The notes: a model not told the origin generated them from the sequence alone. Numbered from the stretch's first letter, positions 35,294 through 53,456 are shown. The stretch is DNA of 64,000 nucleotides from an uncultured Gemmatimonadaceae bacterium (GCA_963781585.1 CAWAGQ010000004.1:224001-288000); one strand, 5' to 3'. A program made the numbers and translations.

Positions 35294-35367
35294 GGCAGGG
35301 TAGCTCAGGTGGTTAGAGCACGGCACTCATAATGCCGGGGTCGTGGGTTCGAGTCCCACCCCTGCTA
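35294..35367 (+). tRNA. tRNA(CAT), probably elongator tRNA-Met; integration target
   Basis: GGCAGGG/CCCTGCT acceptor stem, CGGCA-CTCATAA-TGCCG anticodon arm, GTTCGAGTC T-loop; Ile2 identity not excluded. Confidence 0.92.
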
Positions 35368-36626: not shown

Positions 36627-36629
36627 GCG

Positions 36630-37609: not shown

Positions 37610-38106
37610 GCGAGCGCCACCTCGTATTCCGGAGGTGGCGCGACCGGCTCGAACTGTTCCGATGGCGGAGGCGGACGGCGTCCCGCTGCGGCCCGCTGCA
37701 GCAGCTCCCGGCGCGCGGGGTGATCCCAATCCAAGGGCACCAGAACCCACGAGAGATGCCGGCGCGGATCCCGCCGGTACTGCTCTTCCAGATGCCATTG
37801 ACGTGCCGTCTCAATGTCGAGCGGACCGGAGGCGAGGCCCGGATTGTTCGCACGCGTCGCCACGTAGCAGATCGCCCAGGTCACGGCATCCGGAACGGGG
37901 TACTCCGCCCGAGTGCCGCGCCGCCGAACCGGCAGGCCCTTTCGCGCCCAGTTGCGCAGCGTCTGGTCGGTGACGCCGAACGTCTTGCACATCACGTCCT
38001 GGGAGAGGTGCGCGGGGCGCCGGGGCGAGCGCGCAATTGGCGCGTGCAGCGTTAGGCTCGCGAACGGACTCGGCCTGGGCTGGCGGCGCTGGCGAGGCGT
38101 GCTCAT
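37606..38106 (-). CDS. Lambda gpNu1-like small terminase / Rpp-like DNA-binding protein
   Basis: FGVTDQTLRNWARKGLPV...YPVPDAVTW matches the Nu1 winged-HTH pattern (FGASIRTIQNWQEQGMPV...YDSAAVIKW). Confidence 0.72.
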   Translation of the reverse strand: MSTPRQRRQPRPSPFASLTLHAPIARSPRRPAHLSQDVMCKTFGVTDQTLRNWARKGLPVRRRGTRAEYPVPDAVTWAICYVATRANNPGLASGPLDIETARQWHLEEQYRRDPRRHLSWVLVPLDWDHPARRELLQRAAAGRRPPPPSEQFEPVAPPPEYEVALA

Positions 38107-38163
38107 CTCACCGGTGCCCACAAACCAAAAGGGTGCGTGCGGGCCGCCGTACAGAAGCCGATT

Positions 38164-38205
38164 GGGGTTCTCGGTCCCCCGGTGAAGACCTTCCAGGGAG
38201 GACCC
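38164..38205 (-). other. Candidate cos site (cosQ + cosN-like)
   Basis: Minus strand GGGTCCT (lambda cosQ sequence) followed about 19 bp later by GGGG-ACCGAGAA-CCCC, just upstream of the Nu1-like gene. Confidence 0.5.
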
Positions 38206-38260
38206 GCGGCCCCCTCGGGGGCCCCTCGTCCGCGGACAAGTCCGCGCATGGTCCGCGGAC

Positions 38261-38461
38261 TCATCGGGGAACTCCGAGCGCGCCCGGACGCTCGCCGTCG
38301 CCGCGAACCGCGACCAGGGGGGCGCAGTCGCAGATGCCGAGCCCGGCGAGCATCGCGCAGCCGGCGTCGTGGTGCACGTCGACCTGGATGACTTGGCCGG
38401 GCCGCAGCTCCAGCGCCCGGAGTAGCTCCAACGCGATCGGCATGTAGGCCGGTAGCTTCAT
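38261..38461 (-). CDS. Small Cys/His-rich hypothetical protein
   Basis: HHDAGC...CDCAP; start overlaps the helicase stop. Confidence 0.6.
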   Translation of the reverse strand: MKLPAYMPIALELLRALELRPGQVIQVDVHHDAGCAMLAGLGICDCAPLVAVRGDGERPGALGVPR

Positions 38462-39612
38462 GCGCCCTCCGCCAATGCCAGACGCGTCGCCTCTGGCTCG
38501 CTGAGCAGCCCCGGATTCTCTCCTTCTAGCAGCCCGCCGGCTCCGTCGCGGAGTCCAGCGTCTTGCCGGACAGTCCGTAGTCCGGGTCTTAGAGACCCGG
38601 ATACGGACGAACTACTGTCCGAGCAGTCAGACGCCCGAATGTCCGCGAACCGTTCGCGAACGGTTCGCGAACCGATTTCGAGACCCAGCTGAGTGATACC
38701 GGAAGGGGTGGGGTACCATTTCCCATCCCTGTTCTCGGCAACGAGTTCCCGCTTGATGAGCTCAGCCTTGATGGCGTAGAATCTCGTCTTGCCGATGCCG
38801 GATCGGTTCAGCCACTCCGTGGGCTTCAACGCGCGCGCGGATTCGTGCAAAGCGGCCAAAACGGTTCGCGAACCGATTTCTAATGTTCCGGCTCCCGTCG
38901 CACGCTCCACGACGACTGAATCGCCGCGGCTCACGAGCTCGAGCAGAAGCGGATCTCCGGGCTGGAAATCCCGTGCCTTCACCACGGCGAGCTTCACCGT
39001 TGATCGGCCCATCCGCTCGACCGACATCACCACGTCCGCGCGCCCGCGGAAGGCCGAGGAGCCTCGCTCTCGGCTCCCTTCCCAGCCCGCATGGTGGTTG
39101 ATCAGGGCCGCGCAGCCGAGGGCGAGCTGCAGCCGGCCGACGCCGTGCAGGAATTCCCCGAAGTGTTGTGCGGAGTTTTCATCGAAGCCCGGGGGCGCGG
39201 TGGCGGCGAGCGTATCGATGATCACCAGGGCCGGTCTGAAATGCGCGGCCTCGAGCGCGGCCAGGAGCTCTGCGATTCCTTCGGGGAGGTGGAAGGCCAC
39301 CGGCTCCCCGAGATAGCGCACGCGTTCCAGGTTGCAGCTCTCGTGCGCGCTAATCCACGCCTGGACGCGCGAGGGGATGCCGCCGAAGCCCTCGGCGATG
39401 ACGTACAGCACGGACGAGGGGCCCGCTATCGGGAGCCCGGCGAATGAGCGCCCAGTGGCGATGCTGTGGCCCATGCCGATCAGCAGGTGCGTCTTCCCGA
39501 CGCCCGACGCGCCGTACATGACATGTAGGCAGCCCTCGAATACGAAGCCCGGGAGCAGCGCCGGAATCGGCTTGGCGTCGGCAAGGAGCTCCTCGGCGGT
39601 AATCAGTTTCAT
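38458..39612 (-). CDS. RepA/AAA_25-type SF4 helicase with C-terminal wHTH
   Basis: Walker A GASGVGKT, AEG, IIDTLA Walker B, DENS, HHAG, RGSSAF motifs. Confidence 0.9.
   Translation of the reverse strand: MKLITAEELLADAKPIPALLPGFVFEGCLHVMYGASGVGKTHLLIGMGHSIATGRSFAGLPIAGPSSVLYVIAEGFGGIPSRVQAWISAHESCNLERVRYLGEPVAFHLPEGIAELLAALEAAHFRPALVIIDTLAATAPPGFDENSAQHFGEFLHGVGRLQLALGCAALINHHAGWEGSRERGSSAFRGRADVVMSVERMGRSTVKLAVVKARDFQPGDPLLLELVSRGDSVVVERATGAGTLEIGSRTVLAALHESARALKPTEWLNRSGIGKTRFYAIKAELIKRELVAENRDGKWYPTPSGITQLGLEIGSRTVRERFADIRASDCSDSSSSVSGSLRPGLRTVRQDAGLRDGAGGLLEGENPGLLSEPEATRLALAEGA
38641..38880. repeat. Iteron-like repeats (candidate replication origin)
   Basis: GT(T/C)CGCGAAC at 38641, 38652 and 38663 (11-bp period); 21-bp exact repeat at 38659-38679 and 38860-38880. 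Confidence 0.6.
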
Positions 39613-39878
39613 CGCCCGCTCCTCAGCACGGGCCGAATCGAACTCGCGCGCCGCGAGCCGCCTGATGATTGGCGAGCTTCGCGTCGGGCCAGCTCTAGCT
39701 CGAGTGCGTTCAAGCCTCGCGTTAGGATGCCGAGGAGGACCGGGCCCCGGTGCGGCGCTGGCTTCCTCGCGACGTCGACGAGCCAGGCGCGCATGACCAG
39801 GCGCCGTCGCTCGAGCTCGGTGGTCGGGCCTGACGCGTAGGCCCGCAGGGCGGCTTCTCGTGCCGCGTCGTCGATCAT
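39609..39878 (-). CDS. Hypothetical protein
   Basis: Co-oriented; stop overlaps the helicase start. Confidence 0.5.
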   Translation of the reverse strand: MIDDAAREAALRAYASGPTTELERRRLVMRAWLVDVARKPAPHRGPVLLGILTRGLNALELELARREARQSSGGSRRASSIRPVLRSGR

Positions 39879-39924
39879 GCCCGCACGCTCCACGTTGCCT
39901 TTCCCCGCACGCAAGGGGGCCGCC

Positions 39925-40167
39925 TCATTTCGCGGCTCTCTGCGCGAGCTCCGCCTTCGCGCGCTGGAGCGCCGCGATCAGCTCGTCGAGGCGGTGCGGC
40001 GGAACCGTGACGCCCTTGCGCGTGGGGTGCCATCCCCCGTCGGCGGCGCGGAAATACGTCCGCACGTCGACGAATTGGGCGTCCTTGTATCGCCCCACCT
40101 GAATCTGCAGCCGCTCGCCGTCGCGGCCCTTCGCGATGACGGCCAGAGGCGCCGCGGTGTCGCTCAT
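39925..40167 (-). CDS. PC4/YdbC-like ssDNA-binding protein
   Basis: YKDAQFVDVRTYF...WHPTRKGVTV PC4 signature. Confidence 0.88.
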   Translation of the reverse strand: MSDTAAPLAVIAKGRDGERLQIQVGRYKDAQFVDVRTYFRAADGGWHPTRKGVTVPPHRLDELIAALQRAKAELAQRAAK

Positions 40168-40493
40168 CGCGACCCCCCGACTCGATCGAGAGCGCGGCGC
40201 AGCTCCCGCAGTTCATTCGCGCGGAAGTTGAGGCCCCTCCTCGTCGGCAGCCACTTGCCATCGGTGGTCTTGAAGAACTGGCGAAACCCAATCTGACGGA
40301 CTCCCTTGAAAGTCCCGACCGTCAGCCAGATTTGGGTCGTCTCGTCGCGCGGGAAGCGCGCGAGGATGCGCAGCGGACTCGCGGGGGCAGGCGCGGGCAG
40401 ATTCCCTCGCGGGGGGCTGGCGCGCCGCGAGGCATCGTGTCTACTTTTCAAACGCTCAGGTTGCATGTTGACCAGAGTGGTTTGTGGATTCAT
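40164..40493 (-). CDS. Second PC4-like protein
   Basis: FKGVRQIGFRQFF...WLPTRRGLNF PC4-like signature. Confidence 0.78.
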   Translation of the reverse strand: MNPQTTLVNMQPERLKSRHDASRRASPPRGNLPAPAPASPLRILARFPRDETTQIWLTVGTFKGVRQIGFRQFFKTTDGKWLPTRRGLNFRANELRELRRALDRVGGSR

Positions 40494-40539
40494 GTCGCGC
40501 GCCCCCGCGGATGCCATCGTCGGGGGCGCGGTGCTTTTT

Positions 40540-41313
40540 CTAGCCTTTAGCGCCCGTGACCATCGGCGCGTATCCGGGCGTGACGCGCGGCCCCGTCGGC
40601 GTACCCGGCTTCTCCGACGCCGATTTCTGCTCGCGGCGGACGACGCGACGCGGCGCCGCATCCGGACCGCCCGGGTTGCGCGTGCGGTGGTAGAAGGGCT
40701 GCGCCACCCCACCGCCTAAGCTCGGCGGCGATGTGAGATCCGGAATCAGCACGCTGTCGTCATACCTGAGCATTCGCTCATGGCCACGGATGATTTCGAC
40801 ATCCTCGCCTTCCAGCACATCGTCCAGCTCTGCGGCTCGGCCGGATTTCTTGACGGCATAGTACAGGCGGTCTTCCTCGCTTAACGCGGCCTTGTCGCTG
40901 GCGAGCGCAACGCCCACGGCACGCAGCATCATCTGGTGCTCGACGGCCGCCCGGTACCGGGCGGTCCGCATGGCGCGGTACGCTGCGATGTCGACGTCTT
41001 CAGTCGCCCTCTTCAGCTCGGCTTCGCTCGCCGCGAGTCGCTGCTCGGCTGCGCGCCGGCGGATTTCGAGGCGCCGGATCTCGTCGCCGAGGCTCCGAAT
41101 CTCGCTATCGCGGGCCGGCAGATGGAGGGGCACCTCCTGCTGCAGATCCGCCTGCAGCTGCTTCTCCGCTTGCGCGTGGCGCTCCTTCGCGGCGGCAAGC
41201 TCCGCGTCGATGTCCGCGAGCCGGTGTCGCGCCTTCTCGACGTCGGCAGCGGGGGTCTCGACGTCTGCTCTGCCGGCGTCGGCGTGCGCTCGTGCGGTGC
41301 GTGCTTGACTCAT
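40540..41313 (-). CDS. Coiled-coil hypothetical protein
   Basis: Heptad-rich Ala/Glu/Arg N-terminal half. Confidence 0.65.
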   Translation of the reverse strand: MSQARTARAHADAGRADVETPAADVEKARHRLADIDAELAAAKERHAQAEKQLQADLQQEVPLHLPARDSEIRSLGDEIRRLEIRRRAAEQRLAASEAELKRATEDVDIAAYRAMRTARYRAAVEHQMMLRAVGVALASDKAALSEEDRLYYAVKKSGRAAELDDVLEGEDVEIIRGHERMLRYDDSVLIPDLTSPPSLGGGVAQPFYHRTRNPGGPDAAPRRVVRREQKSASEKPGTPTGPRVTPGYAPMVTGAKG

Positions 41314-41354
41314 CTGTGGACCTATTGGCGGGAAGGAAAGTGAGAGCGCGCCGC

Positions 41355-41984
41355 CTAACGCGAGCCGAGCGCGCCGGTTCGTTCCGGGAAGAAGCTGGCG
41401 GCCCGGCGTTCGATCGGGTCAGGAGAGTCCGGCCGCGCGAAGCCCGGGTGCGCGAGGGCGTGGCTTTCCTCCACCAGCTGATCCTCCCGGCTCAGGCGAT
41501 CGCGTTCCGCCCGGAGATCCGCGGCCAGGATCCTCGGGCAGGTTCCGGCGCTCAGCGCTAGGTCAAAAAGCGGCCGGAGACGCGGATCGGGGAATTGGCG
41601 CGCGAGCGCCTCGAAGGCGGCGCGCCTGCGCGCTGCTTTCTCTGCTGCCGTCGGAGGGGCCGGCGCCGGCGCGGCGGCATGCATGGGGGGCACCGCTACC
41701 GCCACCGCTTCTGGCTTTGGGCGCGGCGCTGGCGCCGGCTTTGCCGACGGCACCTGGCACCGTGGGGTAGCCGATGACGGGGTGCGGAGCGCGAGCGCCA
41801 ATCGGGCTCGTGCGTGTGGTCCGTCATCACCCGCGTGCAGGAAGGCTTCGACGCGCCTGGCCATCGCGAAGACCTCGAGCGGGTCGCTGGCTAGACGCGC
41901 GCGCACGGCGGCGACGTCGATCTCCCGGACGAAAACCAGGCCTTCGTTCACCAGGGCGAGCGCGGAGCGAGCGTCCTCGATCAT
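41355..41984 (-). CDS. Hypothetical protein
   Basis: Start overlaps the upstream stop; Pro/Ala linker. Confidence 0.55.
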   Translation of the reverse strand: MIEDARSALALVNEGLVFVREIDVAAVRARLASDPLEVFAMARRVEAFLHAGDDGPHARARLALALRTPSSATPRCQVPSAKPAPAPRPKPEAVAVAVPPMHAAAPAPAPPTAAEKAARRRAAFEALARQFPDPRLRPLFDLALSAGTCPRILAADLRAERDRLSREDQLVEESHALAHPGFARPDSPDPIERRAASFFPERTGALGSR

Positions 41985-42199
41985 CGGACGCCCCCCGCAC
42001 CTGCCATGGGCCGCAGATGCGAAAACGAGTCACTATCCCGGAGCGCATTGAGCACGGTGCGGCGGATGAAGTAGCGTTGTCCGACCGTTCCCTCAACGAT
42101 CACGCCCGCGACGTTGCCGAGCTGCATTTGTCGGAGGAGACGCTCGCGGCTCATCCGCAGCTCGAATGCGGCGCGACTGATGGGTACGAGATCATCCAT
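41981..42199 (-). CDS. AlpA/Xis-like small HTH protein
   Basis: ISRAAFELRMSRERL HTH; first gene of the leftward operon, divergent from the repressor. Confidence 0.6.
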   Translation of the reverse strand: MDDLVPISRAAFELRMSRERLLRQMQLGNVAGVIVEGTVGQRYFIRRTVLNALRDSDSFSHLRPMAGAGGVR

Positions 42200-42291
42200 G
42201 GAGAGACCCCTTGACGGTTATGCGCGCGGCAATAGCTTTACGTGTGCAGCGTATACATCGCGTGCCATCAACGTAGACGAGAGCGTACACA

Positions 42292-42999
42292 ATGGCAAGG
42301 GGAGAACTTCTGGAAGACTCTTTGCGCGAACGCCTGGCGCAGCTGGTGAGAGCACGGTACCCGGACAGCGTCAACCGGGCTGCGCGTTCCATCGGCATTC
42401 CACAGCCGACACTGCACAGCATTCTTTCGGGAAGAACGGCCGAACCCCGGGTGCCCATCGTGCAGAAGATCGCTGCGCATTTCGGCGTCACGATCGATTG
42501 GTTGCTCACTGGCAGCGGCAATGCCGAAGCGCCCGAACACTCCGGACGGCCGACGCCACATTCCGAGCGAGCGCTGCAGGCCGTGGATCTGAATCCGCGC
42601 CTCCTCGGCCAATGGCTGAATTCCGTGCCAGGCGTACTCCACTCCGTCTTTCAGGTGATTGACCGAGAGCGTCTCATCGGAGACTATCCGAAGGGAACGA
42701 CGACGCAGGCCGTGGCCACGGTGAAGCGGCGCCAGGCGAATGAGTATCTCGATCGGTCCCTGGCCTTGGCCATCGAGGTTCTGATTCTGGAGCGCGGCCC
42801 GGAGCGCGCCCGTGAAGCACTGTCCCGCCCCGATGTGCTCGCGGCCCTCTCGCATTTGAGAGTCGATACGCCCGGGCCGACCGTCGAGGAAGTGGAGCAC
42901 TGGCGTAGCTATATCGATCAGGCCCCGAACTCGACCGGCGCGTCCGTAGGATCCCTTAGCCCGCGCCGCCGGAAGCACTCGCCGAAAAGAAAGCGTTAG
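42292..42999 (+). CDS. XRE-family repressor
   Basis: SVNRAARSIGIPQPTLHSILSG...IAAHFGVTIDWLLTG HTH_3 pattern. Confidence 0.85.
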   Translation: MARGELLEDSLRERLAQLVRARYPDSVNRAARSIGIPQPTLHSILSGRTAEPRVPIVQKIAAHFGVTIDWLLTGSGNAEAPEHSGRPTPHSERALQAVDLNPRLLGQWLNSVPGVLHSVFQVIDRERLIGDYPKGTTTQAVATVKRRQANEYLDRSLALAIEVLILERGPERAREALSRPDVLAALSHLRVDTPGPTVEEVEHWRSYIDQAPNSTGASVGSLSPRRRKHSPKRKR

Positions 43000-43007
43000 G
43001 CGCACGC

Positions 43008-43328
43008 TCAGGGGGCGAGCCTCGGGCCCATCGGGTCGATGCGATCGAGGTGCTGCTCGAGCCACGCGATCGCGTCGAGCACGTCCTCGTACTCCCAGCT
43101 GCGGCCCTCACCCCACCAGGGCAGCGTGAGCTCCGCGATGACAACGCCGGTCGACGTCCGCGCCGCCAGGCGCGTGAGACCGCCGGCGGCCGGCAGCTGC
43201 ACCACGCCGCGCTCGCCTGGCCAGTCGCGCCCCTCGGGCTGATCCCCGGCGTCCGCCCGCTCGACGAGCGAGACCGTCCTCCGCCGATGCTTCACTCCCG
43301 CGTTGTTGCTGGGCAGGCTCTCGCCCAT
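43008..43328 (-). CDS. Hypothetical protein
   Basis: ORF downstream of the ImmA-like gene; start uncertain. Confidence 0.45.
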   Translation of the reverse strand: MGESLPSNNAGVKHRRRTVSLVERADAGDQPEGRDWPGERGVVQLPAAGGLTRLAARTSTGVVIAELTLPWWGEGRSWEYEDVLDAIAWLEQHLDRIDPMGPRLAP

Positions 43329-43356
43329 CCCATGATCCCCGCGCCTCCGGAAGCGG

Positions 43357-43860
43357 TTACTTCGCGGCATGATCCGCCCCCGTTACATCGCGCCGCGTGG
43401 AGTCAACGGAGGCCGCGCCCGTGCCGCCGTGCTGCCCCGCCAGGAGGCGATCGACAAAGAGATCGGCTTCCACCTCGACTTGCGCATCGATCGTGGCACT
43501 GCGGGCCGGCGCGGCGTCGCCAACGTGGTTCAGCGCAATGTGCGCGAGCTCGTGGAGCACGGTGCGGACCAGGGCTGCTCCGCTGAGCTGCACGTGCACC
43601 AGGATCACGGCGACACCGCCGGCGGCGAAGACGAGCCCGGGTCGCGGGAGCGGCGCGCGGATCAGCACGATGCGTTCGCGCTCGAGCACCGCGATGAGGC
43701 TGGCGATGGTGATCTCACGGCGGAACTCCGGGTGCCGCTGGCGCCACGCTTCGACGGCCAGGCGCACGGTCAGCACGCGCGGCCGCAGCCGGCGCAGCGG
43801 CTCTCTGGGGAACGGGACGAGCGCCGACGTCGGCGCCGTGTACGGGACTGCGGTGGCCAT
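43357..43860 (-). CDS. ImmA/IrrE family metallo-endopeptidase
   Basis: RTVLHELAH HExxH plus EVEADLF motif. Confidence 0.82.
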   Translation of the reverse strand: MATAVPYTAPTSALVPFPREPLRRLRPRVLTVRLAVEAWRQRHPEFRREITIASLIAVLERERIVLIRAPLPRPGLVFAAGGVAVILVHVQLSGAALVRTVLHELAHIALNHVGDAAPARSATIDAQVEVEADLFVDRLLAGQHGGTGAASVDSTRRDVTGADHAAK

Positions 43861-43992
43861 GAGGATCCCCTCCGGACTGGTGGCGCCCGGAGGCCCGCCC
43901 GCGCTACCTTACGCGCGCAGGCCCTCGGGTCTGTGGGGAGCCAGTCGGAGATCCTTCCTGGGAGACACCGGCTGGCTCTTTCTATGCCGGAG

Positions 43993-44039
43993 ATTATACG
44001 CAAAAGCGAATTGCGTCAATATGCAGCTTTGCGTATAGT
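43993..44039. promoter_or_regulatory. Back-to-back divergent promoters with an inverted-repeat operator
   Basis: + strand TTGCGT-17-TATAGT; - strand TTGACG-15-TATAAT; TATACGCAAA...TTTGCGTATA inverted repeat. Confidence 0.7.
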
Positions 44040-44047
44040 GCAGTCCC

Positions 44048-44272
44048 GTGAGTCCGATCCGCCTCCGACTGCGCGAGCTCCGCGAAGCGAAGGGCCTCTC
44101 ACAACAGGCCCTGGGAGAGCGCGCCGGCGTCCGCCAGGCGACGATCTCGCAGCTCGAATCTGGACGCAAGCAGCGACTCGATTTCGGAATCCTCGAGCGT
44201 CTCGCCGACGCTCTCGGCGTGGAACCGGGCGAGCTCCTCGAGCGGGACGGGAAGCGGAAACGGGCTCGTTGA
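44048..44272 (+). CDS. Small XRE-family HTH regulator
   Basis: LRELREAKGLSQQALGERAGVRQATISQLESG; near-leaderless GTG start. Confidence 0.9.
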   Translation: MSPIRLRLRELREAKGLSQQALGERAGVRQATISQLESGRKQRLDFGILERLADALGVEPGELLERDGKRKRAR

Positions 44273-44275
44273 AAG

Positions 44276-45040
44276 ATGGCCGACATCAGTAGGGCCCTTG
44301 TTGAATCAGTCGCGCGTGGCCTGGACGTCGCGCACGAATTCCTGGATGGGGTCGAGGATCTCGGCGGACACATCGGGCTGATCCAAAAAGCCTTCAACGG
44401 TGTCCAGCAAGCACGTCTGAGGCGCTTTCTGCGCGCATTGGCTGCGCGGGAGCAGGAATTGACCGATGAAGAACGGGAGCAGCTCTACAAGCGACTCGAC
44501 ACGAGAGCTGGCAGGGAGCTCCTGGTTGACGCAGTCGACGCAGTCATCCGAACGAATTCGAAGCGCGCGGCCGCCGCTCTCGGACTCCTTATCGGGGATC
44601 CTTCCGGTGAGCGGTTCAATCCGAGCTTCCGGCGTAATGCGTGCGAGGCTCTGCGCGGACTCTCAGACGACCAGGTTGACCTTTTTCTCGCGTTGCTCCG
44701 AATAGCGCGCGAAGTACCGCAGCAATCTCAACGCACGATTCAGGGCGACGAATACGTAACGGACATTGGCATTTGGCACGCTGCGGCAAACGCCCAAGGG
44801 GTCAGCCTCCTCATTCAGCCCTTATACGCAAGACTCGGCCTAGACCCTTGGACTATCAGAAGTCGCACAAATCAGTTGATCACGCGCGGGCTCTTATTGC
44901 CGGACGTAGGGACGCGCGTGGACACCCAAGAATATCTGACTTTCGCATTCGGTGGCGAGTCCCTCCTGTTCGAGGATCTCTTCGTACGCGCTCGAGGCGC
45001 GATCGGTCCCGACGGAGATGACAGCGAACTCTCGAGGTGA
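44276..45040 (+). CDS. Hypothetical cargo protein (possible Abi-alpha-like defence protein)
   Basis: Co-transcribed with the XRE gene; atypical codons; helical N-terminus and wHTH-like C-terminus. Confidence 0.6.
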   Translation: MADISRALVESVARGLDVAHEFLDGVEDLGGHIGLIQKAFNGVQQARLRRFLRALAAREQELTDEEREQLYKRLDTRAGRELLVDAVDAVIRTNSKRAAAALGLLIGDPSGERFNPSFRRNACEALRGLSDDQVDLFLALLRIAREVPQQSQRTIQGDEYVTDIGIWHAAANAQGVSLLIQPLYARLGLDPWTIRSRTNQLITRGLLLPDVGTRVDTQEYLTFAFGGESLLFEDLFVRARGAIGPDGDDSELSR

Positions 45041-45211
45041 TCGGACGAGGATTCGGACGCCTCCCGCTGCTCCAGATCTGGGACCGGCTGGACTGTATGG
45101 GGGGAAGGAGGAGAGGGGGGTCTGTACGCACAGGGAGCACTCCGGCCATCCCTCCACTGGCTCATCCCCAGGTTGCCAACGGCACTGCCACCACGTCACG
45201 TTACTTAGCGA

Positions 45212-46051
45212 ATGCCCGCACCACTTGTCGCCCCCGACTCCCTGCAGATCAGGCGCTCTGCATTTGCCCAGATCTACAGTCGACCTATTGAGATCCAGCG
45301 CGCCGAGGCTCTTGCGTTCTATGAGCTGATCACTCGAGACATCGGGCACTTTCCCGAGATGCTGAACCAGCCAACCGGGCTCGTGTTCAAGCGGCGCGCC
45401 GGCCAACACGTCTCGGAGGTACAGGTGAATCGCGTGAACATCGCCGGCCAACCACGTGGACCAGCGCCTGCGGCAACTCGGTTTCTATTTGCAGAGACGG
45501 GATCGACGCGCCCCGTCTCCGAGTTCAGCGCCGAAGTGGCTGCTGCGGTGGAGGCCTTCCGATCGAAGTGGCACAGCGTCGGCCGGGTCACGGTGACGGA
45601 GGTGTCCTTTCAAGCCACTGTCGCTGTGAACCACCCGGAGGGGTCAATGGGCTTCATCCGAGAGAGACTGGTCCCATCCGCAAACGACAAGGCACATCTC
45701 GGGCGCGATTTCCCAATCGCCCAAGTGAGGCTGACTGCTCCGCTCCAGCTCATCGCCGAGGGCGGACAGAGCGAGCCGCGTCATATACTCGACGATGCCG
45801 AAATCAGCCTGAGGTTGGAGCCCTTCGCCGAGGACCCCCGTTTCCTCTGGCTCGAATCCATTTATAAGTGGCCCCTTGTCCAGATGAGCCTGCAGGATGT
45901 GCCCATACCCGATGACGTTCGTTCAAGTCTCCCCCTCGGCCGCTCTCTGGAAGTCAATCAGAGCGAACGTGAAACGACTAGCTACATCACTGCGGGCTAC
46001 AACTATGTGAACAACAATGTCACCCCGTACCTCCAAGCGCTGGGTCGCTGA
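45212..46051 (+). CDS. Hypothetical cargo protein
   Basis: 279-aa ORF, lower GC than host genes. Confidence 0.65.
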   Translation: MPAPLVAPDSLQIRRSAFAQIYSRPIEIQRAEALAFYELITRDIGHFPEMLNQPTGLVFKRRAGQHVSEVQVNRVNIAGQPRGPAPAATRFLFAETGSTRPVSEFSAEVAAAVEAFRSKWHSVGRVTVTEVSFQATVAVNHPEGSMGFIRERLVPSANDKAHLGRDFPIAQVRLTAPLQLIAEGGQSEPRHILDDAEISLRLEPFAEDPRFLWLESIYKWPLVQMSLQDVPIPDDVRSSLPLGRSLEVNQSERETTSYITAGYNYVNNNVTPYLQALGR

Positions 46052-46071
46052 TTCTCCGGGAGACGCTTCGA

Positions 46072-46368
46072 ATGTCAACCCTTACCAGTGCAAACCCGCT
46101 CGAGGTGTCCATGTCTGAATCTGGCGGGATGTTGCCAGTGCCGATCTTGGTCCTCGCCCTTTCGCTGCAGGGAGTCACGATCACCGACGCTCGGCCGCCG
46201 ATGGCGGTCGCACCCGCAGCCCTTCCAATCGGCGCGGCGACGCAGGGAGGCGATGCCCTGTCGTTTGCAGATGACGACCTCATGCCGGTCGGTCTCTCGA
46301 CCATGGAGCTGGCTGCCATGGCCCGCGGTCGTATGGGCGGAGACGCGAATCACATGCTCGACATCTGA
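46072..46368 (+). CDS. Small hypothetical protein
   Basis: Fills the gap between two co-oriented cargo genes; start uncertain. Confidence 0.4.
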   Translation: MSTLTSANPLEVSMSESGGMLPVPILVLALSLQGVTITDARPPMAVAPAALPIGAATQGGDALSFADDDLMPVGLSTMELAAMARGRMGGDANHMLDI

Positions 46369-46379
46369 CCAACGGGAGG

Positions 46380-46836
46380 CCTGTCCCCCTGTTCGAAGAT
46401 GCCAGCGGTCCGCTCTCACAGGGGGACCTCTTTCTCGTCGGACTGGGACGAGGACCGCGCGACACGATTGGGTGCGGTCCTTGTCTTGAATCATTCGTGC
46501 GAGCTTGACAAATCCGCCGTGGACTTGGTCCTCGTCGCGCGCGTGATCCCTCGCATGGGAACGGACCCGGGACTATGGGGCGACATCCAGCGCGGTCGAG
46601 TGTGGCACGCCTTGCTCGCGGAGGGACTGATGCCGGAGGCTTGGATCAGTCTCCGGGAAATCCTTCCCATATCGAAAGCGGTGCTGATAGAACGGATTGC
46701 ACGCAGAAGGCTTACTCTTACAGAATCCGGTCGCCTCGCGCTGGCCGAGAAGGTGTTCCAGTGGCTCACTAGGAGCTTGCCGCCCGCCAAGCGCGGCCCA
46801 CAGCTCTCATTTCCTATCACCGATCCCCGGCCGTAG
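46380..46836 (+). pseudogene. PemK/MazF-like hypothetical protein, apparently frameshifted near 46434
   Basis: LSQGDLF in one frame and VLVLNHSCELDK...VLVARV in the next frame. Confidence 0.5.
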
Positions 46837-46922
46837 TCCAACACGGGTAGCCGCCGCCGGTGCGATCTTCCGCTCCGCGACCGATGGGGTAGGTTCCGAA
46901 GCAGTCCCGTCATGGAGCGCCG

Positions 46923-47303
46923 GTGCCACGACCCTCGCTGAGGCCCACCTGGACCGAGCAGGCCCTCCGCCTGATCGGATGGGTCACGGTCATCGTGTCG
47001 ATCTTCGCGGGCATGGCATGGCTCGCGAATTCTGGCTCCGATCCCGCGGCCGCGGCATACGGCGTCGCTGCAATGCTCGTCGGGCTCTGCGCGGCGCCGG
47101 TGACGTTCGCGCTCGCGGAGATCCTCGAGCGATTGCGCCTCACTCAGGAGCGCGCGCTGCAGTCCGAGTGGGATCGCGAGCATCCGAGGTCCGAGACGCC
47201 GCCGCCGGCGACCAGGCGCGATAGAGAGCGGAGCAGGGAAGCACCGGTGCCGGCACCGGCACCTGCGCGTCAGCCAGATGCAGCCCCGCGGCGATTCCGC
47301 TGA
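46923..47303 (+). CDS. Two-TM membrane protein
   Basis: Two hydrophobic helices; GGAG RBS. Confidence 0.65.
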   Translation: MPRPSLRPTWTEQALRLIGWVTVIVSIFAGMAWLANSGSDPAAAAYGVAAMLVGLCAAPVTFALAEILERLRLTQERALQSEWDREHPRSETPPPATRRDRERSREAPVPAPAPARQPDAAPRRFR

Positions 47304-47759
47304 GGCGACGTTAGGCATAGCATGTCGAGAACCGCTCCGGCGTTCCCAGGCTGTGGCCTGATCCCTCTTTGCCTCCCAAGGAGCTCAGGATGCCGGTGGC
47401 TTTGGGGGACCAGGCGAGTCCGGATGGCACTTTTTCCGCTTCTTCCCGGACCCGCACCCGCATCCGGCGCAACGGGTGGGCCCCGACACAAAGAGCGCTC
47501 CTGGCCGGCGAACGCGGTCCCGGGTCCGGCATCGGCGGCTTTACGATCTGCAGGACCTCGCCCGCGCGGCGACGTTCTGGGAGACGCGAATGCCCGGCGT
47601 GCCATCGGCGCTGCGTATCGACATTGAACGCCTGGTGCAGCTGACGGCGCCATCTCCTGGCCGCACGAGGGGGTGAGCTCTCCGCCGTCCCACGGCCCGT
47701 ACCATTGGCATTGCCCGAAAGTCGCCCGGGGCCGTCGGGGGACCCGGCGAGATCGGGCC

Positions 47760-48092
47760 TCAGGCGTGATCGTGCGAAGCCGGGGCGGGTGTCGGCGTCG
47801 CGGCGAGCGGTGAAGCTGCCGGCGCGGGGTCCCGGGAAAAATGAAGGCGGTACTCGCGGGTCCGGCGGTCTGGTGACGCCTGCGCCTCGAGGTAGCCGGC
47901 GCCGCTGAGGCGACGCAGCGCGACGCTCGCCGTGGACTCGCTCACCACGGCCAGGCGCGCGACGACGACGAGCTTCACGTGCCGGAACTCCACGAAGTCG
48001 AGCACGTCGCTGATCGCGAGGAGCACGCGCACATCCGCGGCCCGGAGCTCCGGCGCGCCGGCGGCCTGGGCGATCGCCGGAAAGAGCGTCAC
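47760..48092 (-). CDS. Small winged-HTH protein
   Basis: VARLAVVSESTASVALRRLSGAGYL pattern; starts 1 nt after the tape-measure-like gene stop. Confidence 0.65.
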   Translation of the reverse strand: MTLFPAIAQAAGAPELRAADVRVLLAISDVLDFVEFRHVKLVVVARLAVVSESTASVALRRLSGAGYLEAQASPDRRTREYRLHFSRDPAPAASPLAATPTPAPASHDHA

Positions 48093-48093
48093 G

Positions 48094-51000
48094 TTAGGCC
48101 CTGGCTGTCATGCCCAGCGTGCGCAGATCATCATCGTTGATCTCTGCGATCGCCTTCCGGATCTGGCGCGCCAGCTCCTTCGAGACCTTGTCGGCAGCGC
48201 CGCGCGCGTCGGCTGGGACGCCATCGAAGCGCACGTTGAGCGTCGTCGTAATCTGGGGGGCGAAGACGGAGCCGCTGCGGCCGACGCTCATCGCGATCGC
48301 GGCCGTCGTCGTTGAGGGCAGCGCGGGCGGCTGGACCGGGCCGAGCGTGAGGCGTGGTAGGCCGATCGGCGCGAAGGCGGGTGCCGCGGGCAGGCCCGCG
48401 TCCTGCTTGGCGAATTCCACCAGCTGCCGCGTGAGGGCCACGAGCGTGCGCTGGTAGTCGAGGAGGCGATCCCCTTGGATGGCGGTGAGCTGCGGGGTGC
48501 CACTCAGGACTTCCGTGCCGGCGCCCGCCGCGGCAGTCACGCCCTGGCTGACCGCGCTCGGGATCGCGCGGATGGCGTCCAGGATCTGGAGGATCGCCTG
48601 CTGCGTCGTCTTGTCGGTGGTGCGTTCGCCGAGGGCTATGAGCTGCTGCTCCAAGGCGGCGCGCCCGCCAGCGGTCGTCACATCCGCTCCGGCCGTCACG
48701 GCCGCGAGCTCCGGCGTCACTTTGCCCAGGGCCTGGACCGTGCGCACCGCCTTCTCGATCGGGTCGGTGATGTTCTCGAGATGGAGCCCGAAGCTCAACG
48801 CATCCGCGGCACTCTGCAGACTATTCGCCGCCTCGGCGGCGGCAGTGTCGAGCGTGCCCAATGCGGCCACGAGCGCGTCGATCTGCTCGGTCGTCAACCC
48901 CTCGAGCTGGAAACCGCCCGCCCGCAGGTCATCGAAGAACCGACGGATTCGATCGTCGGCCTGCTGCACGCCGGCCGCCGTCGTGAGGTCGATGCCGTCG
49001 AAGAGATGCGCGAACGCCGGGAATGCTGCTTTGAACCCGTCGACCTTGGCGGCGAACTTCGCGATCGGATCGGTGATGTGATCAAACTCGATGGTGAGGT
49101 CCGATCGACTGAGGATACGCTGCGCCGCGTCGGCGGCCTCCTGGTCCGCCCGGTCCAACAGGCTGAGAATGAAGGTGATGCCGTCAGCGAATGGCTGCTC
49201 CGCCGCCGTGATGCCATCCTTCGCGATCTCCGCGTAGTCGGCGCGGAGGCGCTTGCGGAGTTCATCGCGCGCGGCCGGATCCAGCGGATTGAAGGAGCCC
49301 AAGCCCTCCGTGAGCGACGCGAATCCTTCGGGCAGTTTGAAGTTCGCCAAGGACTGCGTGATCTGATCGCTGACAGAGGTCCCGAGGACCTCAAAGCCGG
49401 TGCGGATATTGTTGAAGGCGTCGTTCACATGCGACGCCAGCTCATCGGCCGCAGCCGCGCCGGCATCGAAGCTGTCAGATAATCCCCCGATCGCCTGCAA
49501 CTGCGCCTTCTCGGCCTCCGTCAGGATGCCATCCGCGAGCATACCCTCGATGATCGGCTTGATCGATTTCCTGAATGCGTCGCGCGAGGAGAAGTCGATC
49601 TGCGCCGCGAGCTCCGGGAAGTCCTTCGTGAAGGCCTCGACGGCCTTCTTCGTCGCCTCGTCGACCGAGAGCACGCCGTACTTGACGCCCACCGCGAACA
49701 CGTCGAGCGAGCCGCTGAACGCATCGGCCGCGAGCTGCGCCGCATTCTCGAGGGAATGGATCCCGTCGATGATGTCTGAGATCGCCTGCAGGAATTCGTC
49801 TGGGGAAAGGTTGCCGAGCTGGCTCAGGTCCAGCTGGCCGATGTTGTCGACCAGGCCCGCGAGCCGCGTGATTGCTTCACTGCGCCCGGCCTGCGTCGTG
49901 AGGTCGAGCCCGGAGAGCGCCTGCTGGATCGCGCTCGAGCCGCCCGCGGCGGCGTCCGTCGCCGCGGCGATCGTCGCGGTCACCTTCTTGAGTTCCCCAT
50001 CCCATCCCGTGAAGGCCTCGGGCTGCGCCTTGATGTCGATGTCGAGGCGTTTGAGCGCCCCGCTCCAGCTCTTCAGGATCTGCTCGAGCTGGAAGGTCTT
50101 GATCGCGGCCTGCAGCGCCTTGAACTCCGACACCAGCGGCGGGTTGCTGAGCCCCACGCCGAAGCTCTGGGCCGCCTTCTTGAGGTCATCCAGGCCGATG
50201 CCGGCCGCATGCAGCGCGGCGAGCAGATCCGCGGACGTGGTGATCGGGCCTGTAACGAAGCGCCCCTGCCCGCCGCCTAACGTTCCGACGTCGAAGCGCG
50301 TCTGGGTGAGCGACAGGTCGCGGATTGCCGCGGTCTTCGCCGGCGTGGTGGTGAGCTGGATCGCTGCGACCAGCCCGTCGCGGAGATCGCGCAGCCGCTC
50401 GTTGTTCTCCTTCAGGATGCGGTCGTGCTCCACATCGGCCGGCGATTTCCCGAAGAGCCCACCGATCGTGCCGGCCAGGGCGATGCCGCCACCGAGGATC
50501 TGGCTCAGGCCGGGCAGCGCCGAGACGATCCCACCTCCGGTCGAGAAGAGCTGACTGAGTCCGCCGGCGCTCTTCGCCAGGCTGCTGATCTCGCGGAAGC
50601 CGTCGACGAGCTGCACGACGGATCCGAGGACCTTGGTGATCGCGTCGTCGGCGCCGAGTAGAGCGGACGCGATGCCGAAGGCGGCCTTCGCGGCGTCACC
50701 CAGATGCTGTCCCAGCGTGGCCGCCTGCTGGTTCCCTTCGAAGTAGGCGTCGACTTCGTCCTGCTTCGCCTTCGCGATGCGCTGGCCCAGGTCCGCGATC
50801 GCCGTCTCGAGGGTCAGCCGCTCCTTGTCGAATTCGGCGCCCTTGCCGGAGAGCGCCGCCAGGCGATCGGCCAGATCCGCCTGCTGACGCTGCAGCTCAG
50901 GGAGCTCGATGCCAATGTCTTTCGACTTCGCGATCGCCTTGTTCGCGTCCTCGATCGCCGCCGTCGTGTCGATCAGGCTCTGCTCAGCATCCTCGAGCTG

Positions 51001-52371
51001 CTGGCGTTGCTCGTCGGTGATGAAGGGATTGTCGGCCAGCTCCCGCTTCAAGTCGGCGAGCGCGAGCTGCATGTCATCGACGGCGGTGGTGGTGAGCGCC
51101 GCGCGCAGCTTCTCGAATTGCTCCGCCGCCTTGTCCGCGCTCAGCTGCGTGAGCTGCGTGCGCACACCGACCGATCGGGCCTCGATGTCCGCGAAGGCCT
51201 TCGTCGTCTCCGTGGTGGGCCGCTTGATGTCCTGGAAGCGCTGGCGAAGATCGCGCATCGCGCGGTCGTAGTCGTCGAGCGATACGTTGCCCTTGGCCGC
51301 GCGCTCGGCCAGGTCGTTGAACGCGTCGGAGAGTTCGCGCGTGGCCTTCGCGGTCGCTGCCTGCTGCTCGGCCAGCGCTTTTGGATCGGCGGCCGTGATC
51401 TTGATCGCCTGACGTTCCGGCCGCTGCTGCACCCCTGGCTGCTGCACGCGGGCGACGATGTCGGCGAACTCCTCCTGCAGCGGCCGCGCCTTGTCCTCGA
51501 GCTCCTGGAGCGCCTGCTGCAGGGCGCCGAGCACGAAGATATTCCGCTGCCGGATCGCCGTATCGATCTCCGCCTTCTTGGCCGCGATCTTCTGCTCGAG
51601 GAGATCGAGGCTGTCGTCGAACTGGTTGGCCGGCGTGCCCTGACGAATGATCTGCGCGCGCGCGGTGAGGCCGGTGACATCCCCGCGGTTCTGCAGCTCG
51701 TCGAGCGCGGCCTTGGCCTTCTGCTTCGTCTCTTCGATTTCGCGGCGCGCCCGCGTGAAGAATTCGAGAATGGCCTGTCCCGCGATGGCCACGGATCCGA
51801 CGATCACGCCGCCGGAGCCGAAGGCGAAGGCGAGACTGCTCACGGTGGTGAGCAGCGTGCGTGCGGCCTGGCCACCCACCTTCCCGGTGCGGCTCATGGT
51901 TTCCGCGGCGCTGGCGATCGCGATCGCGGCGCCGGCGTATCGATCCCGAGTCACACTGGCCGCCAGTCCCTGCGCCTTGAATCCCTCGACCGCAGCGAGG
52001 CCCGCCGTGCGTTGGGCGCCGAGCGCCGGCACCAACCCGGCCGTGGCGCGCTCGATTCCGGCCGTCGCACGCGCGGCCTGCGTCTCGATCCGGATCCGCT
52101 CATCGAGCGTGAGGTTCCCCGCCTGCAGCGCCTTCTGCAGCTGCCCCTCCGCGGCCACGAGCTGCTTGAGCGATTGGGCGCGGGTGCCCTCGAGCTCCGC
52201 GCCGGCCGACAGCCGCGTGATCCGGTTCGCGATCGCGTCGATACCGGCGGCCGATTGCTTGGCCGAGACCTCGATCGAGCGGAAGGCGGTGCTCGCCTTC
52301 GCGGAGAGCTGCTCCAGCGCGCGGCTATCGGCGACCACCTCGACCATGAGCTTCTGCGGGATAGTTGCCAT
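48094..52371 (-). CDS. Phage tail tape-measure-like protein (1425 aa)
   Basis: N-terminal LMVEVVADSRAL, Ala-rich helical/coiled-coil body, Gly-rich hydrophobic segments, internal DLTTxAG repeats, C-terminal APQITTTLNV...ELARQI. Confidence 0.8.
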   Translation of the reverse strand: MATIPQKLMVEVVADSRALEQLSAKASTAFRSIEVSAKQSAAGIDAIANRITRLSAGAELEGTRAQSLKQLVAAEGQLQKALQAGNLTLDERIRIETQAARATAGIERATAGLVPALGAQRTAGLAAVEGFKAQGLAASVTRDRYAGAAIAIASAAETMSRTGKVGGQAARTLLTTVSSLAFAFGSGGVIVGSVAIAGQAILEFFTRARREIEETKQKAKAALDELQNRGDVTGLTARAQIIRQGTPANQFDDSLDLLEQKIAAKKAEIDTAIRQRNIFVLGALQQALQELEDKARPLQEEFADIVARVQQPGVQQRPERQAIKITAADPKALAEQQAATAKATRELSDAFNDLAERAAKGNVSLDDYDRAMRDLRQRFQDIKRPTTETTKAFADIEARSVGVRTQLTQLSADKAAEQFEKLRAALTTTAVDDMQLALADLKRELADNPFITDEQRQQLEDAEQSLIDTTAAIEDANKAIAKSKDIGIELPELQRQQADLADRLAALSGKGAEFDKERLTLETAIADLGQRIAKAKQDEVDAYFEGNQQAATLGQHLGDAAKAAFGIASALLGADDAITKVLGSVVQLVDGFREISSLAKSAGGLSQLFSTGGGIVSALPGLSQILGGGIALAGTIGGLFGKSPADVEHDRILKENNERLRDLRDGLVAAIQLTTTPAKTAAIRDLSLTQTRFDVGTLGGGQGRFVTGPITTSADLLAALHAAGIGLDDLKKAAQSFGVGLSNPPLVSEFKALQAAIKTFQLEQILKSWSGALKRLDIDIKAQPEAFTGWDGELKKVTATIAAATDAAAGGSSAIQQALSGLDLTTQAGRSEAITRLAGLVDNIGQLDLSQLGNLSPDEFLQAISDIIDGIHSLENAAQLAADAFSGSLDVFAVGVKYGVLSVDEATKKAVEAFTKDFPELAAQIDFSSRDAFRKSIKPIIEGMLADGILTEAEKAQLQAIGGLSDSFDAGAAAADELASHVNDAFNNIRTGFEVLGTSVSDQITQSLANFKLPEGFASLTEGLGSFNPLDPAARDELRKRLRADYAEIAKDGITAAEQPFADGITFILSLLDRADQEAADAAQRILSRSDLTIEFDHITDPIAKFAAKVDGFKAAFPAFAHLFDGIDLTTAAGVQQADDRIRRFFDDLRAGGFQLEGLTTEQIDALVAALGTLDTAAAEAANSLQSAADALSFGLHLENITDPIEKAVRTVQALGKVTPELAAVTAGADVTTAGGRAALEQQLIALGERTTDKTTQQAILQILDAIRAIPSAVSQGVTAAAGAGTEVLSGTPQLTAIQGDRLLDYQRTLVALTRQLVEFAKQDAGLPAAPAFAPIGLPRLTLGPVQPPALPSTTTAAIAMSVGRSGSVFAPQITTTLNVRFDGVPADARGAADKVSKELARQIRKAIAEINDDDLRTLGMTARA

Positions 52372-52377
52372 CGCCGG

Positions 52378-52950
52378 TCACTCCAGCGGGAGAAGGGAGG
52401 ACTGCGCTCGATTGCCGAAGATCATCAGCAGTTTCAGATAGTCCTGGACCGCCTTGAATCGCTGGAGGGCCAGGAGCGCGGTCTCGGGCCCGATCATGGC
52501 GCCCTCGTGGAGCGCCTGGGTGGCGCGCTCAAGATCGCTGATCCCCTGGTGAATCACCCGAATGCTGGCGCCGATTACGCCCGCCAAGTCGACGAGTCGC
52601 GCCTCCTCGGCCGGCGTTCGCCCGGGCCTCGCCGCCAGCCGGCGATAGTGCTCGTTCTGTTCGAGCAGGCGCCCCCCCCCGAGCTGCGCCGAGAGCCGCA
52701 TGACCCCCTCATGCCCGAGGACGGCCCCGATGGTCTTGTCGAGTGATCGGAGCGCTGAGGCCCGCTCTGCGTCGTTGAGGGTCGCATCCTCGGGCGTCGC
52801 GGGGGCCGTGAAGACCTGCCGGATCCGGCCGAGCTCCGCGAGCATCTGATCGGCGAGCTGCTCGCGGTAGGCGAAGGCGGCCTCGGTGAACTCGCGCAGC
52901 AGCGCGGGCTCGATGCCCGGAAAGATCGGCGGCGTCCGCGGCGCGATCAT
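52378..52950 (-). CDS. Hypothetical helical protein upstream of the tape-measure-like gene
   Basis: Co-oriented, 6-nt gap to the next gene. Confidence 0.6.
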   Translation of the reverse strand: MIAPRTPPIFPGIEPALLREFTEAAFAYREQLADQMLAELGRIRQVFTAPATPEDATLNDAERASALRSLDKTIGAVLGHEGVMRLSAQLGGGRLLEQNEHYRRLAARPGRTPAEEARLVDLAGVIGASIRVIHQGISDLERATQALHEGAMIGPETALLALQRFKAVQDYLKLLMIFGNRAQSSLLPLE

Positions 52951-52988
52951 CGACCCGCGGTCGCTCGACGTCCGAGGCGCGGCCACCT

Positions 52989-53006
52989 GGTACCACGGGT
53001 GGTACC
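52989..53006. promoter_or_regulatory. Candidate integrase arm-type/accessory site (right)
   Basis: GGTACCACGGGTGGTACC, matches 35428-35445. Confidence 0.55.
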
Positions 53007-53092
53007 ACAACTTGCGCTGCGCACTGCCGCATCACGCCGCGTCATTCCTCGTTTTCCCCCGGAGCGGCACTTTCCCCCTCGGGGTCGACGCG

Positions 53093-53140
53093 ACTCATAA
53101 TGCCGGGGTCGTGGGTTCGAGTCCCACCCCTGCTATTCGG
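53093..53140 (+). repeat. attR core, 48-bp direct repeat (3' half of the tRNA)
   Basis: Identical to 35325-35372. Confidence 0.97.
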
Positions 53141-53170
53141 GAGCCGCCATCCGGTGACGGATGGCGGCTC
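53141..53170 (+). terminator. Hairpin after attR (probable original tRNA terminator)
   Basis: GAGCCGCCATCCG-gtga-CGGATGGCGGCTC; second hairpin AACCCCGCCTGG/CCAGGCGGGGTT at about 53213-53241. Confidence 0.7.
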
Positions 53171-53456
53171 CGTCCTTTCCGCCCACGTTAGGCAGCCGGA
53201 AGCGCACGCGAAAACCCCGCCTGGACTTGCCAGGCGGGGTTGGTCCTTCGTGCCCGGCGTGCGACGTCGCGGAGGCAGCCGCGGACGCCGGGGGAAAGAC
53301 CGCCGGGTCACGATGGACCGTGTGAGACCGCCGATCGACACCGGAAGATCGCAGACCTCCACCCGAGGGACGGGACCGGTGCCCGGGTCAGCGCTGTTCC
53401 TTCGACACCGCGATCGTCGCGCGGTTCCGTTCCGACCCCTTTGGCGGCTCCGGCAG

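Follow-up and report, generated by a model that had tools for sequence, protein, structure and literature searches.

The window analysed here is a stretch of 64,000 nucleotides from an uncultured Gemmatimonadaceae bacterium (GCA_963781585.1, CAWAGQ010000004.1:224001-288000), in which an original prediction, made from the sequence alone, had singled out a stand-alone, tape-measure-like protein of 1425 amino acids (P0001; 48094-52371, minus strand). The gene was found to lie on an island of 17,828 bp (35320-53147) that is integrated in a tRNA-Met gene and bounded by attachment (att) sites. ARAGORN placed tRNA-Met genes at 33875-33949 and 35293-35368, and a 60-nt stretch starting in the second of these is repeated at 53088-53147 with 95% identity, including a core of 48 nt that is identical in both copies (35325-35372 and 53093-53140). 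The tRNA gene and attL of this direct repeat together occupy 35293-35372 (plus strand), and attR (53093-53140, plus strand) is a duplicate of the 3' half of tRNA-Met. A tyrosine integrase gene adjoins the tRNA (35313-36626, minus strand; PF00589, E 3.1e-09; phrog_1, 7.2e-32), and the host pentose-phosphate genes zwf, gnd-like and pgl follow to the right of attR. Next to attR, inside the island, three genes form a minus-strand operon in the order P0002 (52378-52950), P0001 and a small winged helix-turn-helix (wHTH) gene (47760-48092). The original prediction had missed the att-bounded island, the recognition of which shifts the biology of P0001 from that of a prophage tail gene to that of satellite-type cargo.

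P0001 is the only recognisable virion gene on the island, and in this respect its description as stand-alone holds. Translations of 39 island open reading frames (ORFs) were scanned against PHROGs, and 24 of these also against Pfam, without a single match to capsid, portal, large terminase, tube, sheath, Dit or Tal families. Similarly, a tblastn search of the island with 37 virion proteins from related prophages returned only the gene encoding the tape-measure protein (TMP). The gene lies outside any tail module, with no tail gene on the island and the small wHTH gene as its downstream neighbour. In a sister genome of the same genus (G001), both flanks of the island are found on one contig, and the same tRNA-Met carries a different integrase-bearing element that has no TMP gene. 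Because G001 holds a different element there, the tRNA-Met site is polymorphic and the 17.8-kb segment is an insertion.

The 1425-residue reading frame is intact, with an ATG start and codon-position GC contents of 0.69/0.47/0.88, which are typical of true genes in the 67%-GC surroundings; its product contains 17.6% Ala and 10.9% Leu. When P0001 itself was used as query, the Pfam matches, to KIF21A_4th (0.0063) and DnaB_bind (0.011), were both sub-threshold and unrelated, and the only match in PHROGs was to phrog_2990, a family of unknown function (E 0.001). A word-index search returned three relatives, P0005 among them. This search understated the family, since an exhaustive HMMER search with residues 1-1200 of P0001 found 327 representatives at E ≤1e-3, 145 of them at ≤1e-10 and 49 at ≤1e-30; no relative appeared in scans of viral_contigs (with P0001 alone as query), genome_contigs and metagenome_contigs. 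Among the best 36 full-length relatives out of the 150 listed, which were scanned with Pfam, ten matched PF10145, 14 had no Pfam match at all, and none matched an SMC, chemoreceptor or type VII secretion system (T7SS)/secretion-substrate family above the cut-off. The outcome named beforehand as refuting the original prediction, with non-phage coiled-coil proteins as best profile matches and homologues that never adjoin tail genes, did not occur.

A link to a TMP in its usual setting is provided by P0005, with which residues 399-874 (33% identity) and 1031-1354 (28%) of P0001 align at E 6e-52. P0005 matches PF10145 (3.4e-10) and seven PHROG tape-measure families (best phrog_167, 9.7e-19), and on its locus, an IMG/VR viral contig (L010), it occupies the canonical TMP slot, following portal, protease, major head protein, adaptor and Neck1-type genes and preceding Dit. 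Homologues of P0001 are also the TMPs of five complete prophages and adjoin tail genes. Because its homologues are TMPs both by curated model and by gene position, P0001 is, as judged from its sequence, a genuine and intact member of the phage tail tape-measure family, and the original designation as tape-measure-like is supported. P0001 resembles canonical siphophage and myophage TMPs of the PF10145 type, such as P0005, in its homology over two thirds of its length, in a Gly-rich hydrophobic block, in repeat units with G-x-D-x-T and ITDP motifs and in a conserved C-terminus; it differs from them in having a conserved N-terminal type of its own instead of PF10145, and in that no Dit, Tal or tube genes adjoin it. 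The N-terminal 400 residues, which lack PF10145, are conserved in P0003, P0004 and P0007-P0011, and the TMP of the complete prophage in G067 matches from position 71, so into this N-terminal region. The family blocks are conserved through to the C-terminus, and with 1425 residues P0001 falls within the range of family lengths (760-1730 aa).

P0001 has the build of a TMP, that of a long protein with Gly-rich hydrophobic segments and internal repeats. The two Gly-rich hydrophobic stretches noticed earlier were located at residues 172-207 (51751-51858, minus strand) and at residues 601-641 (50449-50571, minus strand), found with a Kyte-Doolittle scan; both are charge-free and both recur at matching places in P0003, P0004 and P0005. 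The second is the best conserved block of the family, and the first is 41% identical over 70 aa to a 567-aa protein from an island in G013. Internal repeats of about 95-100 aa had also been proposed; the repeats are real and their period is slightly longer, with five tandem units of ~102 aa spanning residues 776-1284 (48520-50046, minus strand). All of the recurring motifs previously reported for the C-terminal half were found in P0001, at residues 821, 924, 1026, 1126 and 1228 (spacings of 103, 102, 100 and 102), and ITDPI occurs twice, at residues 1099 and 1201. When single sequences were compared, units 1, 4 and 5 were clearly alike (z 4.1-8.4; the score was reached by 0 of 200 shuffles), the remaining seven pairs stayed at z ≤2.9 and units 2 and 3 were weak; profiles of three sequences gave the same outcome. 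When the profiles were derived from A3, which aligns 13 full-length relatives, hhalign aligned all ten unit pairs in register at probabilities of 75.7-98.2% (E 2.4e-5 to 4.5e-14), while a control window of 102 aa directly upstream (residues 673-774) reached ≤1% against each of the five units. The repeats are considered real because all ten pairs align in register and the control window does not.

The core of the 102-aa repeat, which consists of the G-x-D-x-T..G motif and the next helix (residues 815-844 of P0001, ~49840-49929), also draws short matches to PF10410 (DnaB_bind), the DnaB-binding helical hairpin of primase. Such a match was seen at the repeat core in 15 of the 36 best relatives, several of them above the Pfam whole-protein cut-off. 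These matches probably reflect a common helix-hairpin shape and not a common function.

A search with an alignment (A1) gave a match in 16 of 401 sampled genomes of the phylum, with the genome of the window counted; an earlier search among relatives had given a match in 3 of 61. Several homologues were found in prophage-type contexts, with portal and major head protein genes beside the homologue in G144, G067, G138, G258 and on contig C79 of G236, accompanied by TerL in G144, G138 and G236 and by Dit in G138 and G236. In G180, the product of the downstream gene (996 aa) shows homology to large tail proteins encoded by L010 and G144. The matches in G399, G367 and G236:C116 end within ~20 nt of the end of the available DNA, and the 5,981-bp contig of G178 ends inside its TMP-like gene.

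Four further islands, all in other genera of the phylum, carry att repeats, an integrase and a TMP-like gene without a match to portal or major capsid protein. The island of G002 spans 16.3 kb from a tRNA-Asn to a 74-nt repeat and encodes an integrase, a primase, an Xis-like protein, TerL, a Neck1-type protein, a 1602-aa TMP with PHROG TMP matches and a helix-turn-helix (HTH) protein. The island of G185 (~17.7 kb, tRNA-Pro) carries a 963-aa TMP-like gene and an integrase, and has in common with the island of the window an HTH protein (61% identity), a RepA-like protein (33% identity over 314 aa) and a terS-like gene. In G334, an island of 12.25 kb at tRNA-Lys, delimited by a 46-nt exact repeat, contains TerL, a 445-aa TMP-like gene and an integrase, and in G303 an island of 18.5 kb at tRNA-His, with a 44-nt exact repeat, contains a helicase, an Xis-like protein, TerL and two short TMP-like ORFs (235 and 284 aa). 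The TerLs of the small islands are mutually 24-48% identical. Across 12 sequences, lone and prophage TMPs share 25-33% identity over their common core, and BLAST does not pair the lone copies with one another as nearest relatives. A locus in G213 (L048, G213:C2, 6635-11083, minus strand) encodes a TerL with 48% identity to that of G334 and, 46 nt further on, a TMP-like ORF of 1016 aa; this order of TerL and TMP without a head gene between them is odd, and is approached in the islands of G334 and G303. In G013, primase/helicase and terS genes were found together with the 567-aa protein mentioned above, which has only the first hydrophobic block in common with P0001.

Satellites that carry a tape measure have recently been described. 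According to the cited sections of one study, PLEs of Vibrio cholerae encode a TMP, a chaperone and a hub, from which chimeric tails are formed with other parts of the phage ICP1, and tail length follows the PLE TMP (PMC12987554). The same sections report that deletion of the PLE tmp gene lowers transduction by 96-99.9% and that putative tmp genes occur in PLE-like elements and in some cf-PICIs (PMC12987554, Extended Data Fig. 10). In Mycolicibacterium aichiense, EPIP satellites carry a TMP, and their tails measure ~284-385 nm compared with 134 nm for the helper, as given in the cited parts of a 2025 preprint (PMC12822802). As far as these sections describe them, PLE1, PLE4 and PLE11, whose helper is ICP1, resemble the present island in being integrative islands without tail tube, sheath or fibre genes and with a full-length TMP of their own, but they carry a recognisable tail assembly chaperone (TAC) and the baseplate hub BhuB together with the TMP and belong to a host of a different phylum. 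By the same limited comparison, EPIPs share with the island a small terminase, an integrase, HTH proteins and a TMP within a satellite, and their tail length is unlike that of the helper; they differ in having a serine integrase, where a tyrosine integrase is found here, and conserved adaptor, stopper, scaffold and major capsid proteins, where no head or neck gene was found on the island in the scans described above. Function has been demonstrated experimentally for PLEs and EPIPs have been isolated as particles, going by the cited sections, whereas the island here is known from its genes alone. Finally, the island resembles PICIs as an att-bounded tRNA island of the 12-18-kb class with an integrase, a cI/Cro-type switch, a primase/helicase-type replicon and a terS-like gene, although classical PICIs act on capsid size and packaging and not on tails.

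We lean towards reading the island as a phage satellite that would carry its own TMP for the tail of a helper phage. The presence of a TMP alone on a small mobile island, without other recognisable genes for the virus particle, points to a parasite of phages, and a TMP built into the tail of a helper is suggested because the layout matches the PLE and EPIP precedents; the island is att-bounded, has its own integrase and possesses its own replication and regulation modules. On the best reading, the element adds a case from an unrelated phylum to the satellites with a tape measure of their own that have recently been described. Upon replication of a helper siphophage or myophage in the host, the island would excise, and circularisation would bring the operon of P0002, the TMP and the wHTH protein to a position directly downstream of the integrase/replication operon and in the same direction. 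Because of this placement in the circle, which is read from the map alone, expression of the TMP may be coupled to excision. A scan of 47300-53400 that covers the sigma-70 consensus only gave no promoter-like site in the integrated state, and two terminator-like sites, both on the wrong strand and no more than expected by chance.

Once made, the island TMP would compete with or replace the helper TMP inside the growing tail tube, and the outcome would be chimeric tails of ~200 nm carrying island DNA. In this scheme the five 102-aa repeats would be the module that sets the length, and the membrane-active parts used at ejection would be the two Gly-rich hydrophobic stretches. The length of a TMP sets that of the tail at ~0.15 nm per residue, and the 1425 residues of P0001 would by this arithmetic correspond to a tail of ~214 nm, an unproven figure that needs a helper phage. 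It is possible, if rather doubtful, that satellites of 12-18 kb, integrated in tRNA genes, form a family throughout this little-studied, high-GC phylum, with no virion genes except the TMP and, sometimes, a TerL directly in front of it.

Satellite TMPs have been shown to work only in the PLEs of Vibrio (2026) and have been proposed for the mycobacterial EPIPs (2025). The finding of lone TMPs on att-bounded islands from five genera, in a phylum that is unrelated and for the most part uncultured, suggests that the manipulation of tails by satellites is widespread. Moreover, a TMP without a recognisable chaperone or hub represents a minimal case for asking what lets a tail accept a foreign ruler. 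If a phylum-wide family of such satellites exists, a swap of nothing but the ruler, with no chaperone or hub of a recognisable type, would suffice to claim the tail of a helper, and P0002 would represent a novel sort of chaperone or specificity factor for the TMP. For annotation, the warning is that a TMP gene on its own is no mark of a prophage.

A number of observations weigh against this satellite reading. None of the curated TMP models in Pfam or PHROGs is matched by P0001 itself, and its link to the family runs through homologues only. A hub/BhuB-like or Dit-like gene was not found on the island by the PHROGs scan or tblastn, so that the PLE-type module of TMP, TAC and hub is incomplete here, and P0002 is an unproven candidate for the TAC by its position only. 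The ORFs at 40540-41313, 41355-41984 and 45212-47676 have no family match. The genome assembly to which the window belongs (G000; 93.5% complete, 17 contigs) gave no match to PF05065, PF04860 or PF10145, no other TMP-like gene with eight diverse queries, and no resident helper prophage. When the 37 virion proteins from related prophages were searched against this assembly, four protease queries found one protease-like gene, three TerL queries found a second TerL of the small-island type on contig C13, and two TMP queries found P0001 only; the helper could be a virulent phage, or could simply be absent. Among the other islands, those of G334 and G303 have short TMP-like genes that may represent fragments, and the scans of G185, G334 and G303 covered ORFs of ≥70 aa that passed a GC filter at the third codon position (GC3), at E ≤1e-5, which a divergent capsid gene could escape. 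Neighbourhoods were covered for nine of the 16 matches and in part for two more, with G011, G420, G399, G367 and G236:C116 left out.

Some of these points would also suit a decayed prophage remnant, once a full siphophage or myophage, from which the head and other tail genes were deleted and in which the TMP is a leftover without present function; we regard such an origin as unlikely, though well short of negligible. The TMP is indeed the only recognisable virion gene on the island, in-frame stops and a poor coding signal are seen at 44099-45451 (minus strand), and the short TMP-like genes of G334 and G303 as well as the lack of a helper in the own assembly fit the same history. However, a stop-free ORF of 4.3 kb with a host-like GC3 of 0.88 would be unlikely to persist in a decaying element, both copies of the 48-nt att core are identical, and intact genes are present for the integrase, for replication and for regulation. 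A compact layout of 12-18.5 kb, comprising att sites, integrase, replication genes, TMP and in some cases TerL, recurs at five different tRNA genes in as many genera, and backbone genes are common to the islands of the window and of G185. Alternatively, the TMP might serve as an anti-phage decoy: by entering or blocking the assembly of tails in infecting phages, it would lead to wrong lengths or dead ends and protect the population whether or not the island is packaged. This appears improbable: PADLOC gave no match for P0001 or its neighbours, and a full-length TMP with all family blocks conserved looks built to function and not merely to interfere, even if the island carries CapH/ImmA-like stress switches of a type that controls defence genes elsewhere. 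On the other side, TMP-directed tail assembly is a proven target of satellite defence in the case of Rta of PLE11, as the cited sections report (PMC12987554), and the decoy and satellite readings are compatible.

It is very improbable that the island is a complete virus of very small size and unrecognised type, with its capsid and tube genes hidden among the ORFs without a family (40540-41313, 41355-41984 and 45212-47676), one of which encodes a 279-aa protein whose model reached a pLDDT of only 34.6. Outside the annotated genes every ORF is too short to encode a portal or large terminase, the ~13.5 kb beside the TMP are mostly taken up by integration, replication and regulation genes, and the island of G002 has only 1.7 kb between TerL and the Neck1-like gene. 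Hardly credible is a non-phage coiled-coil or membrane protein, whether SMC-like, chemoreceptor-like or a secretion substrate, that resembles a TMP by composition. Apart from the missing curated match, a profile search of the PDB with P0001, which gave weak coiled-coil matches only (best E 1.9e-4), would be in line with such a protein, but it would not explain the long, specific alignments to TMPs of complete prophages or the distribution of Pfam families among the 36 best relatives, where PF10145 appears in ten and the SMC, MCP-signal and T7SS families in none. An SMC, chemoreceptor or T7SS identity of P0001 was rejected on the P0005 alignment and TMP slot, the prophage contexts and these Pfam results.

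The gene upstream of the TMP, P0002 (52378-52950, minus strand), is the first gene of the operon and encodes an orphan protein of 190 aa from the ATG, predicted to be all-helical. It had been pointed out as a helical gene in the usual position of a tail assembly chaperone, and it does lie directly upstream on the same strand, with 6 nt between its stop and the start of the TMP gene. An AlphaFold2 (AF2) single-sequence model contains five helices at low confidence (pLDDT 62.6). No Pfam or PHROG match and no homologue was found, a search of the atlas gave unnamed clusters only (scores <0.9), and the low-confidence model had no Foldseek match at E ≤1e-3 in BFVD or PDB. In the frame plot, a single coding frame extends over 52378 to ~52950 (GC3 0.88) and no second overlapping frame for a G/GT frameshift is seen, a slippery site not having been searched for. 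Some known TACs may lack a frameshift. The last gene of the operon (47760-48092, minus strand) overlaps the stop region of the TMP gene and encodes a small winged-helix, MarR-like protein with two matches below the cut-off (PF12802, 0.0024; PF13463, 0.0031) and a GC3 of 0.85.

The left half of the island is occupied by further genes of the mobile-element type. The integrase is 44% identical over 448 aa to that of the G001 element, and is followed by a small Xis/HTH-like gene (36630-36900, minus strand), which forms the C-terminal part of an ORF at 36630-37853 and has an uncertain start. Its weak match to the phrog_66 excisionase (0.0015) falls on residues 332-396 of the long ORF, with a coding signal in frame only over ~36630-36850, and it is 65% identical over 57 aa to a counterpart in the G001 element. 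A small-terminase-like protein of 171 aa (37606-38121, minus strand) has a partial match to phrog_57 (5.3e-07) and 40% identity over 40 aa to G185, its coding frame being supported from 37760 to 38120. The replication module consists of a RepA-like AAA_25 ATPase of the replicative helicase/primase type (38458-39924, minus strand; PF13481, 1.1e-25; phrog_2850, 3.6e-31; phrog_906, 4e-28), for which the counterpart in G185 was noted above, and a small PC4-like DNA-binding protein (39925-40212, minus strand; PF02229, 7.3e-12). A cI-type HTH repressor (42292-42999, plus strand; PF01381, 3.5e-07; phrog_3037, 2.8e-11) lies further to the right.

A divergent gene pair, consisting of a weakly matched ImmA/IrrE-like metalloprotease (43357-43860, minus strand; PF06114, 0.006, below cut-off; phrog_1914, 2.8e-05) and a CapH-like/Cro-type HTH regulator (44048-44272, plus strand; phrog_8, 4.1e-15; PADLOC capH, 1.8e-12), precedes a stretch of lower GC content (0.61 at 44-46 kb). 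The regulator is the HTH protein shared at 61% identity with G185; homologues also occur in G002 and G013, and the gene is common to related islands. PADLOC, applied to 33 island ORFs, reported this CapH-like HTH only, plus two weak matches on 40540-41313. On the plus strand, the ORFs at 44276-45040, 45212-46051, 46072-46368, 46399-46836, 46923-47303 and 47362-47676 follow without Pfam, PHROG or PADLOC match, and 43357-47676 could represent a stress-switched cargo or defence operon. The second of these ORFs, in the lower-GC cargo stretch, encodes the conserved 279-aa protein of unknown function, for which one homologue (56% identity) and unnamed atlas clusters only were found, and the AF2 model of which was based on a two-sequence alignment. 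On the opposite strand, the frame at 44099-45451 shows coding-like GC over 44099-45000, in-frame stops near 44306, 44663 and 44822 and a poor translation, and may be a pseudogene or simply reflect foreign codon usage.

The second TerL of the own assembly belongs to another small island, at ~115.6-128 kb of contig C13, which contains a tRNA-Leu, ORFs of 481 and 632 aa and the TerL gene (C13:123467-124993) and in which no TMP-like gene was found. This TerL is 28-30% identical to the TerLs of the G303 and G334 islands.

The element that occupies the tRNA-Met site in G001 (L062-L064, G001:C25:245400-303000) is ~27 kb long and contains ORFs of 1049, 616, 542 and 480 aa that gave no match to the phage queries. 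Copies of the att core were located at local positions 27181-27259 and 28959-29063 (~27.2 and 29.0 kb), 1.8 kb apart, and ~28 kb more precede the shared right flank. In the left flank, ~394 bp of the window (~34074-34467) are absent from G001, where positions 675-1068 of the query are skipped and the neighbouring segments abut.

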